Source of the DNA: Bacteroidaceae bacterium
GTDB taxonomy: Bacteria; Pseudomonadota; Alphaproteobacteria; RF32; CAG-239
DNA length: 51,480 nucleotides
Direction of reading: 5' to 3'
NCBI GenBank assembly: GCA_963646605.1
Contig: CAVIWQ010000002.1
Span: forward strand, 1 to 51,480
Part shown: positions 46,460 to 51,480 of the stretch, one piece after another
How the letters are laid out: the number at the start of each line of letters is the position of its first letter
Numbering within the stretch: the first letter of the stretch is position 1
The notes under the pieces: model-generated
Told to the model about the DNA's origin: nothing
Databases searched by the model: none
What the model saw: the letters and a program-made list of their open reading frames with translations, nothing else
Made by a program: the position numbers and the translations under genes

Positions 46460-46738
46460 ATGGAAAAAGTCAGAAACAAAGTAAAAATTGCGGCTTTTCT
46501 TAAAGCGTTGGGAAATGCAAAACGCTTGGAAATTGTTGGCATTTTGCGCAAAGGCGAAAAAAAAGTGGGAGATTTGGAAAAGATTATAGGTATCAGCCAA
46601 TCAGCATTATCACAACATTTGGCGGTTTTGAGAACGGCGGGTATTGTTTCTACCCGCCGTTCTGCTCAATCAGTTTTTTATTCTTTATCTGACAATAAAT
46701 GTTACCGACTTCTTGAATTGTTGGATGAACTTTTTTAA
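46460..46738 (+). CDS. ArsR/SmtB-family transcriptional regulator
   Basis: wHTH segments LKALGNAKRLEIVGIL and VGDLEKIIGISQSALSQHLAVLRTAGIV, 92 aa. Confidence 0.8.
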   Translation: MEKVRNKVKIAAFLKALGNAKRLEIVGILRKGEKKVGDLEKIIGISQSALSQHLAVLRTAGIVSTRRSAQSVFYSLSDNKCYRLLELLDELF

Positions 46739-48918
46739 GAAGCCTGAGGCTGGTCATCACCCAGACCCAGCTTTTCCATCATATTGTCATTTACGTCTTC
46801 ACGTTGAGCGACAATCCACTCCGGAACGTTTGGCGCCGGAGGAAGCTTTGCCAATGAACGCATTCTTGGATCAAGATACCAACGCGGTGAATCTGCCATA
46901 ATAGGATGATCGATATTACTTTGCATCAAAACAACTTGTTTAAGCTGCGGCAAGCTCAATAACTGTGAAGCGGTAATAACGGAAACCCCTTGCAGGGAAT
47001 AAGTTGTATTTTTTGCAAATGGGTTAGCTCCTTTGGCGGCAAAGCCTTCCTGTTTTGAAAACGATGAAGTCTGCACGGTTTTGTTACCGACCATTTTGGA
47101 GAAACGTTGAGCTGTTTGTTCGTTGTTTTGCGACAAAATAACTTTGCATGCGGTTGTTGAAATAACCGTTTCAAGGTCATCTTTTCCGTATTTTCCCGAA
47201 ATTTGGCCCAAATCTTGTCCAATCAGCAAATAAGATACTTTTTGACCACGACCTACCGCAGGTCCATCGATAACAGCTTTCATCTTAGGCATCTGCGGAA
47301 ACTCGTCGAGCACAAACATTGCGGGGAAAGGTCCCATTTTACCATCGGACGCATTAACATAATTTGGCGGGTTTGAAATGAGGTATGAAGACATCAATTC
47401 AATGAAAATACTGTTAATAACGCCCAAAGCACGGGCATCTACCTGGTTAATGGACAGATAAACAGAAATAGGCTTCCATTCGCCGGTAATCGGGTCTTTC
47501 ATACCGCGCAAGTCCTTAAATTGCAAATCTGAAAAACTTGTGCGGGCAACAACGGCCGAGTTTTTAAATACGCCGATTCCTGCAAAAGCCGTTGACATAA
47601 CGGAACCTCGTTCCTTATCAGGCATATTGCTCAGTGTTGAAAGTTCGGTATAAGCACGCTGTGTGTAACCATATTTACGTGATTCGTCAATTGCAGCTTC
47701 AAGCAAATCGCGCATAGGGTCAGCCATAGCAGCCATTTGATCGCCTTCATCCATGCGGCGGCGGATTTCTTGTCCTTGTTTAATTTGGGCTTCAGTCAAC
47801 CATTCCATAATCATAGCGATACAGGCTTCGCGGCCGACCCATTTTTCGGGCAATAAATCCCAAGTTCCGATTGCCACATAATTTTCAACGGTCAAATTAT
47901 TGTTGCGCAAATCGCTGATGGCGCGCACAGCGGCGGGGTTATGCATTTTGATTTCTTCATAATACCCTTCCAGAACGCGTTTATCTTCAGCATCAAGTTT
48001 GCCTTCGTATACACGGCTGAGAAAATAGTCGTTTGCGCGGGCTTTTTCGCATTTTGATGCAATAAAATGAATAAATCCGGTCAAAGCAGCACGTCCGGTT
48101 TGTGACCAGTGAGGGTCAGCGCCGCCTTTAGGGTCTTCAACCAAAATGTTGCACATTGAGTCGACGTACATATCACGCGCCGGCCCTGCAACAGGCAAAG
48201 CACTCGGAGACAACGGGTTCCAACTTGGATAATACAGACCTTCTTCCGGTTTGTCTTCAGCACCCCAGTTAATGATGAATACCGGACCTTCTTTGGCGCG
48301 GGCGCCGGAAGTGCTGAAACACAATTCAGGTTTCGGGTCGTTAATAACCAGACTCATGCCTTTTGAATTAAAAATCGTCGGAATAACCACGCCGGCGGTT
48401 TTACCGGTTCCAGGAGGTGCGCAGCACAGGGTTGAAAGGGTTTCAGGCAATTTCAGATAATAGCCTTTGTATTTACCGATAACCATACAAAAACCATCCA
48501 ATAATTTCATGGCTTTAATGTCTTTTAAGGTAGCCAAGCGTCCAGAACCATGAATGTTTGACTGAAAACGATAAGGATTGCTGACAGCTCCGACAATCAA
48601 ACCAATAGGCAAAGACAAAAGCGGCAGAATCGGCAGCCATAGACCAAAGCTAAAACCTCCGCGGTGCATTGATATTTGATTAAACCAACTGCCATAGCGT
48701 TTGAATAAATAGGAGGGATCATTGATAATCATTCCCATAAATTTTCCAACATTTTCAATGGCTTCTTTAGAAACGCCATTGCCGATAAGGTAACCTAACG
48801 GCATAGAAATGGCGGCCAGTATAATGGTGACCAAAAGAGTGATAATAACAGTCAATGACATCCATTGCACTGCGTGGTCATATTCTTCCCATTCTTCTCC
48901 GCGTTTTCTCAATCCCAT
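46735..48918 (-). CDS. virD4: type IV secretion coupling protein (VirD4/TraG family ATPase)
   Basis: Two N-terminal TM helices, HGSGRLATLKD, Walker A CCAPPGTGKTAGVVIPT, WNPL, Walker-B-like FVLDEFPQMPK, and LIGQDLGQISGKYG. 727 aa with an acidic C-terminal tail. Confidence 0.85.
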   Translation of the reverse strand: MGLRKRGEEWEEYDHAVQWMSLTVIITLLVTIILAAISMPLGYLIGNGVSKEAIENVGKFMGMIINDPSYLFKRYGSWFNQISMHRGGFSFGLWLPILPLLSLPIGLIVGAVSNPYRFQSNIHGSGRLATLKDIKAMKLLDGFCMVIGKYKGYYLKLPETLSTLCCAPPGTGKTAGVVIPTIFNSKGMSLVINDPKPELCFSTSGARAKEGPVFIINWGAEDKPEEGLYYPSWNPLSPSALPVAGPARDMYVDSMCNILVEDPKGGADPHWSQTGRAALTGFIHFIASKCEKARANDYFLSRVYEGKLDAEDKRVLEGYYEEIKMHNPAAVRAISDLRNNNLTVENYVAIGTWDLLPEKWVGREACIAMIMEWLTEAQIKQGQEIRRRMDEGDQMAAMADPMRDLLEAAIDESRKYGYTQRAYTELSTLSNMPDKERGSVMSTAFAGIGVFKNSAVVARTSFSDLQFKDLRGMKDPITGEWKPISVYLSINQVDARALGVINSIFIELMSSYLISNPPNYVNASDGKMGPFPAMFVLDEFPQMPKMKAVIDGPAVGRGQKVSYLLIGQDLGQISGKYGKDDLETVISTTACKVILSQNNEQTAQRFSKMVGNKTVQTSSFSKQEGFAAKGANPFAKNTTYSLQGVSVITASQLLSLPQLKQVVLMQSNIDHPIMADSPRWYLDPRMRSLAKLPPAPNVPEWIVAQREDVNDNMMEKLGLGDDQPQAS

Positions 48919-48935
48919 TTTTATATCCTTTGCAA

Positions 48936-50399: not shown

Positions 50400-50921
50400 C
50401 TATTTGTTGCCGCTTGCTTTTTCGTGAAAACTACGGTTTTTCTCTTCAAAACTACTACGTATTTTGCTTGAATTCAAATCTTTTTTCTCTTTTTCTTTAG
50501 GCATGCGGCTCGAAATCATTTCTTCCAGTGCCTGCTGCGGAGTTTGTCTGCCGATTTTTGCTCCCATATTTTTCAGGGTGATAGCTTTAGGAGCCTGAGA
50601 ATATTTGCGTTCCTGATAATTATTATACCAAAAAATCGGGAAAAACAAAATTTTGGCTATTGAAACTTTCATAGCTTTGCGCCATCCCAAAATCCACAAA
50701 GGAATAATTGAAATCAGAGCAATGATAAACAAATATTCCGGCGCTGAGTCAATAACGCCGCCGTCTTGCCAAAATTGGGAAATGGTTTGCCAATATTCTT
50801 TTTTGAAAATATTAAACTTCCAAAAAAACTTCATTACCGCATATACAATGCTGAAATAAAGGCATGACCAAACAGCGCCGATAAAACAAAAACGGAAAGC
50901 TTTTTTTATTTTTTTTAACAT
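50400..50921 (-). CDS. uncharacterised small membrane protein, paralog of the N-domain of the 484-aa protein
   Basis: 173 aa with three hydrophobic helices and a basic/acidic tail. EYWQTISQFWQDGGVIDSAPEYLFIIALISIIPLWILGW aligns with DHWQIAWDLWSNSWVISEPKEWAFVLIIISFIPLWFTGW of the neighbour. It ends 9 nt before that gene. Confidence 0.6.
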   Translation of the reverse strand: MLKKIKKAFRFCFIGAVWSCLYFSIVYAVMKFFWKFNIFKKEYWQTISQFWQDGGVIDSAPEYLFIIALISIIPLWILGWRKAMKVSIAKILFFPIFWYNNYQERKYSQAPKAITLKNMGAKIGRQTPQQALEEMISSRMPKEKEKKDLNSSKIRSSFEEKNRSFHEKASGNK

Positions 50922-50923
50922 TG

Positions 50924-51480
50924 TTATCCCTTTTGTCTTTTATCTTGCATTGCTCTTCTCATTCTGATTTCTGCAAGGTTTTTCAGCTGATTTGAGTTGT
51001 TATTGCTTTGGCTGTGAGAATTTTTGTTATGACGGGCGTTATATCTGTTTTTCATTCTCGCCATTCTGTCTTGCATATTTCTGCCTTTTTCTTCATGTTT
51101 TTGAGCACGGCTGTCTAATTCGGCACTGCGATCTGCATAGCTCTTTCTTTTTTCGTCATTTTTTCGATCGTTCTTTTTATCGTTTTCTGCAGCATTTTCC
51201 AAAGTTCCGCCTGTTACTTCGTTTGCAATCGGCTTATGGGGTTCGGTACGTGGAGCATGCTCTTGGCTTTGACGTGAGTTTTTGAATTCTTCTACGCCTT
51301 CTCTTGCAAAACGGTGACCTGTGTTCCTTTCTGGCTGCTGCTGTTCAGAATGACCTTCTTGTTCAGACTGTTGCTGCTGTTCAGGCTTTTCTTCTTGCTC
51401 AGTTTGATGTTGTTCTTCAGAATGGCCTTCTTGTTCAGACTGTTGCTGCTGTTCAGGCTTTTCTTCTTGCTCAGTTTGAT
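50924..51480 (-). CDS. Gln/Glu-rich tandem-repeat protein with basic C-terminus (5' end outside the window)
   Basis: The frame of listed ORF 50924..51202 (TTG start) stays open upstream to the window edge. It reads ...HQTEQEEKPEQQQQSEQEGHSEEQHQTEQEEKPEQQQQSEQEGHSEQQQPERNTGHRFAREGVEEF...TLENAAENDKKNDRK... Its stop lies 2 nt before the next gene's start. Confidence 0.55.
   Translation of the reverse strand, partial: QTEQEEKPEQQQQSEQEGHSEEQHQTEQEEKPEQQQQSEQEGHSEQQQPERNTGHRFAREGVEEFKNSRQSQEHAPRTEPHKPIANEVTGGTLENAAENDKKNDRKNDEKRKSYADRSAELDSRAQKHEEKGRNMQDRMARMKNRYNARHNKNSHSQSNNNSNQLKNLAEIRMRRAMQDKRQKG
51337..51480 (-). repeat. 72-bp (24-codon) in-frame tandem repeat, at least 2 copies, truncated by the window edge
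   Basis: 51337..51408 and 51409..51480 are identical over the last 58 nt and differ at 4 positions in the first 14 nt. Confidence 0.85.

Follow-up and report, generated by a model that had tools for sequence, protein, structure and literature searches.

A conserved chromosomal gene cluster links a VirD4-family coupling ATPase to new protein families in uncultured Alphaproteobacteria

A VirD4-type coupling ATPase in a compact gene cluster

What a type IV secretion system (T4SS) exports is determined by its coupling protein. We analyzed a gene cluster built around a type IV coupling protein (T4CP) in an alphaproteobacterium of the lineage RF32/CAG-239, using a complete contig of 51,480 bp (GenBank assembly GCA_963646605.1, contig CAVIWQ010000002.1); "the window" hereafter means this whole stretch of DNA. 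Four closely spaced open reading frames (ORFs) occupy its minus strand from 46735 to 51480. In reading order they encode the C-terminal 184 codons of a Gln/Glu-rich repeat protein (50924–51480), a 173-aa membrane protein (p173; 50400–50921), a 484-aa membrane protein (p484; 48936–50390), and a T4CP of 727 aa (46735–48918), at the positions given in a preliminary description of the same DNA that had been made from the letters alone.

The ATPase is a true, intact coupling protein of the VirD4/TraG family, as its layout had suggested to the authors of that description. It matches the Pfam family T4SS-DNA_transf (PF02534) at 1.1e-57 and 196.4 bits (gathering score 20.1), as well as TraG-D_C (PF12696, 82 bits) and TrwB_AAD_bind (PF10412, 65.5 bits). 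Two hydrophobic segments (residues 20–38 and 91–109) mark its N-terminal transmembrane (TM) helices and are followed by HGSGRLATLKD at residue 123, a Walker A GTGKT at 170, a Walker B LDEF at 537, and GQDLGQI at 567. When it was aligned with 24 relatives and two plasmid VirD4 proteins, the TM segments, GTGKT, and LDEF were invariant in all 27 sequences, and the plasmid proteins aligned with it end to end apart from a clade-specific insertion of ~50 aa in the all-alpha domain (residues ~297–355). Its C-terminal tail is acidic.

The protein falls short of every named NCBIfam subfamily with which it was compared (Ti VirD4, IncP TraG, F TraD, Rickettsia VirD4, and CD1115), scoring 22–150 bits against cut-offs of 250–900. 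As a single sequence it had no match in the PDB; as a profile it had one, Cag5, the VirD4 homolog of Helicobacter pylori (E 6.4e-6). Its nearest annotated relatives are plasmid VirD4 proteins, with 35% identity over 82% of the length, whose genes sit, together with those of MobA/MobL relaxases, in canonical virB2–virB11/virD4 loci of Erythrobacter and Sphingosinicella plasmids. Identity to IncP TraG is 26%. The chromosomal T4CPs form a separate clade, 52–99% identical internally.

The genes of the cluster are tightly packed. A 17-nt junction with a ribosome-binding-like AAGGA site separates p484 from the T4CP gene (48919–48935, minus strand), a 9-nt junction with GGAG just 5' of a TTG start separates p173 from p484 (50391–50399, minus strand), and 2 nt lie between the repeat gene and p173. 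These gaps, read directly from the sequence, are those reported previously; the junctions carry AGGA/GGAG-like sites, and none of the three has a terminator-like site, while counts of consensus promoters and terminators showed no excess over shuffled sequences. On the long contigs of two close relatives, whose p484 proteins are 97% and 78% identical to that of the window, the full cluster consists of six same-strand genes in the order p95, p305, repeat protein, p173, p484, and T4CP; a gene for an RluD-like pseudouridine synthase and a sigma-70-family gene lie divergently on its 5' side. The p95 gene encodes a 95-aa single-pass protein with a DUF6476 match at threshold. The packing agrees with the earlier proposal of a four-gene operon ending in the T4CP gene, but the cluster has six genes in relatives, and the T4CP gene is the last only in this sublineage.

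On the 3' side, the T4CP gene is followed by a convergent ArsR-family gene (46460–46738, plus strand) and then by xseB and ispA, a context common only to closer relatives. The T4CP and ArsR-family genes share 4 nt (46735–46738) at their stop codons; with no space for an intervening terminator, their transcripts must overlap.

Partner proteins of the ATPase

We divided p484 into three parts on the basis of hydropathy, invariant alignment columns, and an AlphaFold2 (AF2) model built from 89 homologs. The N-terminal, Trp-rich membrane domain (aa 1–116; 50043–50390, minus strand) is modeled as helices 2–32, 40–51, 59–83, and 87–116, with predicted local distance difference test scores (pLDDT) of ~70–88, and contains two strong hydrophobic helices, a weaker third one (87–116), and many invariant Trp residues. 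Three TM helices had been described, of which the first two stand out clearly and the third is this weaker helix. The middle part (aa 117–320; 49431–50042, minus strand) is a disordered linker (pLDDT < 50) with a basic juxtamembrane SYKEIRP stretch, a segment rich in Pro, the acidic motif FDHALFKFDD, and low-complexity sequence dominated by Arg and Asp: of its 204 residues, 38 are Arg and 34 are Asp, and these two make up 51% of residues 206–310, in line with the Arg/Asp-rich linker noted before. The linker varies between relatives in length and sequence. Its PDB matches were discarded as compositional only.

The C-terminal part of p484 (aa 321–484 plus the stop codon; 48936–49430, minus strand) is a globular domain in which an alpha element and three beta strands precede an invariant acidic loop (GDWLADEERFNDEEPLWFSESSHRISPV) and alpha-beta-alpha-beta follows it. 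This order of elements is compatible with the alpha-beta-beta-beta-alpha-beta core of PD-(D/E)XK nucleases. Its pLDDT is mostly ~90–97, falling to ~58–86 in the acidic loop (aa 361–390) and in aa 421–460. The most conserved residues of the family lie in this domain, foremost in the acidic loop GDWLADEERFNDEEPLWFSESSHRISPV. Foldseek comparison of the model with the PDB returned weak matches (E 0.01–0.3), of which the top ones were nearly all restriction-endonuclease-like (R2 RLE, a retrotransposon endonuclease; the nickase Nt.BspD6I; AF1548; EcoT38I; Bax1; XPF; and Card1), and comparison with BFVD returned nuclease-related domain (NERD), endonuclease-like, restriction enzyme, and DUF2726 proteins (best E 5.9e-4). 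These matches, weak but one-sided, point to a predicted fold of the restriction-endonuclease/NERD kind. Two Asp residues stand where such a fold would require them: Asp346, in strand 2, never varies among the distant relatives and is kept in 90% or more of the close set, and Asp361, after strand 3, is invariant in both sets. The catalytic Lys of PD-(D/E)XK nucleases is not conserved in the p484 family, in which the +2 position is Glu or variable.

The same C-terminal domain also occurs outside the cluster. It lies between TPR and Roc-COR-TIR regions in proteins of 1500 aa (P0202, residues ~611–763; P0222, ~686–830) and at the N-terminus of an AAA ATPase (P0265, ~54–150). These TPR-X-Roc-COR-TIR and AAA proteins, which have conflict-system-like architectures, indicate that the domain is an independent, mobile, and undescribed module.

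p173 is a paralog of the p484 membrane domain (31% identity over 85 aa, BLASTP E 9e-16), a relationship already proposed; it ends in a short charged tail and lacks a C-terminal domain. It occupies the same position in 77 of the 80 loci that we fetched, and in two distant lineages a full-length second p484 paralog takes its place. The repeat protein does run off the window, as stated before, its frame being open to the window end. Its full length is 749 aa in the 97%-identical relative (L001) and 673 aa in the other close relative; the family spans 430–890 aa, is charged and of low complexity with ~12% identity per column, and has one conserved motif, FxExDIIxYMYxxWLxxGxxW. At the contig edge the gene contains a 72-nt tandem repeat (51344–51480; Tandem Repeats Finder period 72, 1.9 copies, 98% matches) encoding a 24-aa unit (QTEQEEKPEQQQQSEQEGHSEE..), which is present in approximately five to six copies in L001. 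This repeat probably caused the assembly break and hence the edge of the window.

The 305-aa p305 protein is acidic and confidently modeled as all-alpha (mean pLDDT 86), with no PDB fold match (best E 1.2) and no sequence match. A NYN/PIN nuclease domain was considered for it and rejected, since the match was below threshold, occurred in only 2 of 57 orthologs, and did not fit an all-alpha model.

The partners belong to no T4SS family that we could find, as the preliminary description had supposed. For p484 and p173 there was no match in Pfam, NCBIfam, or PADLOC; PADLOC had none for any of the six cluster proteins; and the partner proteins had neither a sequence match in the PDB nor a fold match to DotM, DotN, or IcmSW. 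Exact-sequence look-ups of p173 and of the product of 13466–14782 returned no record. A literature search on RF32/CAG-239 secretion systems and orphan coupling proteins returned nothing describing the module. The ATPase family is known, and what is new is the partner families and their fixed chromosomal arrangement, which are undescribed in the libraries and literature searched.

Conservation in close relatives

We searched one genome per GTDB species for p484 relatives, found the family in 375 species, and fetched 80 loci, each from a different species. All 80 are metagenome-assembled genomes (MAGs) from human, mouse, ruminant, and other guts, and all but two are titled uncultured Azospirillum sp., Alphaproteobacteria bacterium, or Rhodospirillales bacterium. 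The two others, L067 ("Lactobacillaceae bacterium", on an 829-kb contig) and L076 ("Lachnospiraceae bacterium"), carry the complete alphaproteobacterial cluster, and their titles probably reflect mis-binning or mislabelling of the MAGs.

Gene order is conserved across the order: wherever contig ends and gaps allowed a check, the sigma factor and rluD genes on one strand were followed on the other by p95, p305, the repeat gene, p173, p484, and the T4CP gene. The T4CP gene came directly after p484 in 78 of 78 checkable loci, the spacing between the two ranging from −1 to 34 nt around a median of 15 nt. Median gaps were 2 nt between the repeat gene and p173 (77 loci), 54 nt between p173 and p484 (79 loci), 79 nt between p305 and the repeat gene (69 loci), and 7 nt between p95 and p305 (59 loci). 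The synteny of p484 and the T4CP gene is far beyond chance, and the linkage is stronger than could have been known from one contig. Nothing that the preliminary description had named as counter-evidence turned up, be it a confident placement of the partners in known T4SS families, a loss of the linkage in relatives, or signs of separate transcription. An apparent p484–T4CP fusion in L015 (1164 aa, ~10205–10300) proved to be an ORF read through a run of N and is not real.

To the 62 relatives whose p484 is less than 50% identical to that of the window, the window proteins have median identities of 74% for the T4CP, 71% for the sigma factor, 63% for RluD, 46% for p305, 43% for p484, 32% for p173, and ~32% over short segments for the repeat protein. 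The T4CP is the slowest-evolving gene of its neighborhood, which argues for a fixed, vertically inherited core function under strong purifying selection rather than for a mobile element or its remnant; that the ATPase evolves more slowly than the neighboring sigma factor gene indicates that its function matters to these organisms. No relative of p484, p173, p305, or the repeat protein was found in plasmid virB/virD4 loci, and no plasmid in PLSDB encodes a p484 relative.

The module in distant lineages

A profile search of 1.84 billion representative proteins yielded 414 p484-family representatives, of which many are ~350–410 aa long, on contigs that, where named, come from uncultured Alphaproteobacteria. 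Genomic contexts were recovered for seven, and in six of these a p484-like gene lies directly 5' of a T4CP gene or is separated from it by one small gene; L088 has a p484 relative without an adjacent T4CP. The distant T4CPs are 52–60% identical to that of the window and 56–72% to each other. The surroundings are of housekeeping type and differ between lineages: in L087 the pair stands between MipZ-LolA and rpmI-rplT-pheS-pheT, with a separate, genuine FtsK nearby, and in L090 and L092–L095 between a DnaJ-domain gene and AnmK. The minimal conserved unit is a p484-family membrane protein together with a VirD4-family ATPase, to which lineages add a second p484 paralog (truncated to p173 in the lineage of the window), p305, a fast-evolving charged protein, a toxin-like HNH/immunity pair, or VirB6-like channel proteins.

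In the DnaJ/AnmK lineage, a gene for a small ribbon-helix-helix protein (Pfam RHH_4) lies on the same strand just 5' of the p484-like gene (L092:2195–2431, L094:4981–5277, L095:9430–9789). This protein may regulate the module or serve it as a DNA-binding accessory.

L091 has a p305 relative (E 2e-22), a counterpart of the repeat protein, and two full-length p484 paralogs. It also encodes a 65-aa two-helix protein, and the gene for a 101-aa lipoprotein stands between its p484-like gene and its T4CP gene. In L086 (1–3041, minus strand) and L091 (1142–6065, minus strand), two or three tandem, related genes for multi-pass proteins are divergent from the module. Their products match Pfam TrbL/VirB6, one of them passing the gathering score (26.1 against 25.9) and the others weakly. 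No VirB3 or VirB4 gene was found beside the VirB6-like array of L091, which is bounded by MlaE/MlaD, and no VirB4 gene adjoins that of L086 either. A search with the L086 VirB6-like protein returned only itself, a metagenome scan with the VirB6-like alignment found no relative, and no plasmid-borne relatives of these proteins were found.

A second conserved association lies on the 3' side. The T4CP gene is directly followed by a conserved gene pair in L086 (9846–11372), L090 (13443–14674), L091 (13789–15507), L092/093 (L092:6333–7506), and L094 (8773–9854), and in 10 of the 80 fetched loci (L020–L022, L028, L031, L038–L040, and L058 at ~13.6–15.2 kb; L057 at ~10.0–11.0 kb). The first protein of the pair has an invariant MWEWS N-terminus and an invariant PENFNxHxKxPxxxGGxxxxxNLxLxxxHxxHxxxH pattern. 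Its profile had a single PDB match, the HNH DNase of pyocin AP41 (4uhp, weak at E 0.011), which aligned on this pattern. The second, of ~145 aa, likewise had a single and weak PDB match, Lin2918 (2icg, E 0.034), which we take to be a SUKH/SMI1-KNR4-type protein. For both, Pfam models stayed below threshold, and no recognisable domain was found in the non-catalytic parts. Judged from motifs and profiles, the pair is likely, though not proven, to be a colicin-type HNH DNase and its SUKH immunity protein. It is unusually conserved across lineages for toxin/immunity-like genes. By eye, the HNH proteins have no obvious signal peptide and would consequently need a dedicated exporter. In some relatives the T4CP gene is followed by a gene of ~242 aa, which had no Pfam match and is itself followed by a gene whose N-terminal sequence looks DNA-ligase-like by eye; we set it aside as probably an unrelated neighbor.

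Three of the proteins have short, invariant Trp/Glu-rich motifs. GEEWEEYD lies in residues 5–20 of the T4CP and can be compared with MWEWS at residues 1–5 of the HNH protein and with GDWLADEE..LWFSES at residues 365–385 of p484. These may be shared interaction motifs.

A candidate receptor module for a dispersed export system

We propose that the module is the substrate-receptor end of a chromosomal, vertically inherited, and dispersed type IV-like export system with lineage-specific adaptors, its remaining parts being encoded elsewhere as in Rickettsiales. We regard this as the most economical reading and give it about an even chance. The VirD4-family ATPase would form the usual ring in the inner membrane, and p484 and p173 would be its lineage-specific inner-membrane partners, docking on it through their Trp-rich membrane domains. 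The restriction-endonuclease-like domain of p484, carried in the cytoplasm on a long disordered tether, and the all-alpha p305 would recruit cargo or hold it at the ATPase, with the fast-evolving charged repeat protein serving as a further adaptor or as cargo. Driven by ATP hydrolysis, the cargo would then pass into a channel of the VirB6 type whose genes would lie outside the module. Originally this cargo was probably the colicin-type HNH DNase, held inactive in the producer by the SUKH-type immunity protein, and such a cargo would make the system a contact-dependent weapon against bacteria or possibly the host. Physical contact among the products, their function as adaptors, the identity of the cargo, and the presence of further machine components in this genome are what we infer.

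To our knowledge, dedicated receptor complexes are understood in detail only for Legionella DotL. The cluster would be a second, unrelated solution, in which no fewer than three new families accompany an ATPase of the VirD4 type throughout a whole group of uncultured gut and rumen Alphaproteobacteria: a membrane protein that carries a nuclease-like domain on a tether, the truncated paralog of this protein, and an all-alpha protein of novel type. The HNH/immunity-type genes linked to the module in sister lineages suggest contact-dependent killing, which is undescribed for this part of the gut microbiota, and the module offers concrete candidates for T4CP adaptors and cargo.

Several findings weigh against the proposal. 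With VirB2–B11 of the nearest plasmid locus as queries, tblastn found no VirB homolog (VirB4, VirB8–B11, and the pilin included), either in the window or across ~1.46 Mb flanking the copies of relatives, ~20 kb around each. The earlier statement that no VirB gene is visible holds for the window and for these flanks, with the qualification that VirB6/TrbL-like genes adjoin the module in L086 and L091. Both those genes and the HNH/SUKH-like pair are absent from the window, and the HNH/SUKH assignments consist of weak profile matches and a reading of motifs. p484 and p305 resemble no known T4CP adaptor in sequence or fold, so that position is what speaks for an adaptor role. Finally, two nuclease-type folds beside a DNA-translocase-type ATPase fit DNA handling equally well.

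The Legionella DotL–DotM (IcmO–IcmP) pair resembles the module in layout, having a polytopic inner-membrane protein with a cytoplasmic C-terminal domain encoded directly 5' of the coupling ATPase. In Dot/Icm as in the module, the genes are apparently co-transcribed, further small or acidic cytoplasmic partners are encoded nearby, and the proposed role is substrate recruitment at the T4CP. The likeness stops there: DotM was not among the PDB matches of the p484 profile or model, p305 had no DotN-, IcmS-, or IcmW-like match, and the ATPase is of the VirD4/TraG (type IVA) kind and not of the DotL kind, its profile finding no DotL. The preliminary description had suggested a complex analogous in role to DotM/DotN/IcmSW; the analogy in position and layout persists, and homology, tested with profiles and Foldseek, was not found. 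Under the export-system proposal, p484/p173 and p305 would play the DotM/DotN/IcmSW part for the T4CP while being unrelated to those proteins.

Other systems share single features with the module. The P-type VirD4 proteins of Erythrobacter aureus and Sphingosinicella plasmids have the same domain order and motifs as the module T4CP, but their genes follow virB8–virB11 beside a MobA/MobL relaxase gene, whereas the module T4CP is chromosomal, has other neighbors, and carries the ~50-aa insertion. The rvh T4SS of Rickettsiales is chromosomal and vertically inherited, with scattered genes and a tandem-duplicated VirB6, and the tandem VirB6-like genes that adjoin the module in L086 and L091 recall this arrangement. 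In rvh, virD4 follows virB8–virB11; the module T4CP, by contrast, follows new families, and it scores 120 bits with the NCBIfam model of Rickettsia-type VirD4, for which the cut-off is 728. In H. pylori, the VirD4 homolog Cagbeta (Cag5) likewise has a partner of its own, CagZ, which is specific to that lineage. CagZ, small, soluble, and helical, attaches to the all-alpha domain; no homology to p305 or p484 was detected.

The bacteria-killing T4SSs of the Xanthomonadales type (X-T4SS) invite comparison because they too are chromosomal and link VirD4 to toxin-like and immunity-like genes, a link that the module has, as HNH/SUKH, in sister lineages only. An HNH cargo would parallel their VirD4-dependent use of toxins and immunity proteins. 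A nuclease effector reportedly has precedent in the X-T4SS (PMC11253643). Definition of the family calls for the full set of twelve VirB/VirD4 genes, an N0 domain on VirB7, and a C-terminal XVIPCD on the effectors; VirD4-recognised effector/immunity pairs are the established logic of bacteria-killing T4SSs, and the X-T4SS review never mentions Alphaproteobacteria (PMC6536674). None of the hallmarks (all twelve vir genes, an N0-domain VirB7, and XVIPCD effectors) was recognised here, VirD4 being the only one of these components at the locus, and for this reason the module is not a member of the X-T4SS family.

The main alternative is that the VirD4-derived ATPase and p484/p173, joined by the VirB6-like proteins where these are present, form a stand-alone inner-membrane translocase that moves DNA or a nuclease without a VirB4-type T4SS, the nuclease-fold domains acting on nucleic acid. 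T4CPs belong to the FtsK/HerA superfamily of DNA pumps. No VirB4 or VirB8–B11 gene lies near any of ~90 loci, the VirB6-like array of L091 has no adjoining VirB3 or VirB4, the conservation of the T4CP is extreme and housekeeping-like, and the ATPase keeps company with a restriction-endonuclease-like fold and a linked HNH nuclease. The local absence of VirB genes is nevertheless weak evidence, given that dispersed T4SS genes are normal in Rickettsiales; the true FtsK of L087 shows that the T4CP is not an FtsK replacement; and p484 has no conserved Lys to complete the PD-(D/E)XK signature. Moreover, all VirD4-family proteins that have been characterised act together with a T4SS that contains VirB4 (PMC6536674). 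We consider a stand-alone machine unlikely, though not negligible, and are similarly doubtful of the broader claim that this T4CP clade no longer serves a VirB4-type T4SS and belongs to an unrecognised, vertically inherited envelope translocase, a new secretion or DNA-transfer system centred on a coupling protein, that exports the HNH DNase or handles DNA through its nuclease-fold partners. Should VirB4 prove absent from these genomes, the T4CP would be operating outside any T4SS and the finding would be categorically new.

Another possibility, raised in the preliminary description too, is that the upstream proteins, especially the repeat protein and p305, are co-transcribed substrates; p484 and p173 would then be the sole structural partners. 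The clearest candidate substrate is nevertheless the HNH DNase of sister lineages, encoded 3' of the ATPase gene. Glu- and Gln-rich regions are recognition features for DotM. The repeat protein evolves fast and, save for its one motif, is of low complexity, as expected of a secreted, target-facing protein, and its gene overlaps or abuts p173. Glu-/Gln-rich regions are also recognition features for XVIPCD effectors (PMC6536674). p305 fits this scheme poorly, being well conserved, confidently folded (pLDDT 86), kept in L091, and more like a machine part, and no C-terminal signal, XVIPCD-type domain, or Pfam match was recognised. On balance we think it rather improbable that these proteins are the cargo.

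A role in defence against phages or plasmids, with the T4CP-like ATPase sensing or pumping foreign DNA and the nuclease-fold partners destroying it, would suit the HNH linkage and the recurrence of the p484 restriction-endonuclease-like domain in the TPR-X-Roc-COR-TIR and AAA proteins of conflict-system architecture. It accords badly with the lack of a PADLOC match for the six proteins, with the membrane anchor of the T4CP, and with a locus that is fixed in a housekeeping context and inherited vertically across hundreds of species, since defence islands are usually patchy and mobile; we judge it very unlikely. That the module is what remains of a conjugative or mobilisable element that integrated, shed its relaxase and VirB genes, and is now decaying, an idea suggested by the occurrence of orphan T4CPs on mobilisable elements and by the descent of this T4CP from plasmid-type VirD4 proteins, is nearly excluded by the conservation data and close to refuted, for the ORFs and motifs are intact, conservation of the T4CP exceeds that of the adjoining genes for RluD and the sigma factor, 80 species share one insertion context, no integrase was seen among the ORFs scanned, and there is no att-like feature, GC shift, or plasmid homolog of the partners.

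Other features of the window

Away from the cluster, the ORFs that we examined are housekeeping genes (GidA-family/trmFO-like, ComEC, prfC, tig, nrdR, def, fmt, FadL, Pal, RNase G, and the dcw cluster) together with an RND efflux pump (~37–41 kb). Domain scanning of 20 ORFs in the first 29 kb, which left aside smaller ORFs, six ORFs of at least 120 aa, and the RND-efflux stretch, revealed neither a relaxase nor an integrase; the Pfam family lists of the loci covering 29–37 kb and 41–46 kb are of housekeeping type as well. We saw no compositional anomaly, shift in GC content, or att-like feature in the window.

Three ORFs (198, 361, and 209 aa), at 2033–3717 on the minus strand and 25782–26411 on the plus strand, had no Pfam match at E ≤ 1e-5. 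The gene at 7239–9128 (plus strand) encodes a competence channel of the ComEC/Rec2 type, with matches to Pfam Competence (8.7e-65) and DUF4131 and no metallo-beta-lactamase domain reported at E ≤ 1e-5. Its presence indicates that the organism has at least part of a DNA-uptake route separate from the T4CP. A tRNA-Leu gene (10915–10999) overlaps the listed ATG (10958) of the trigger-factor ORF, the true start of which is therefore probably further downstream.

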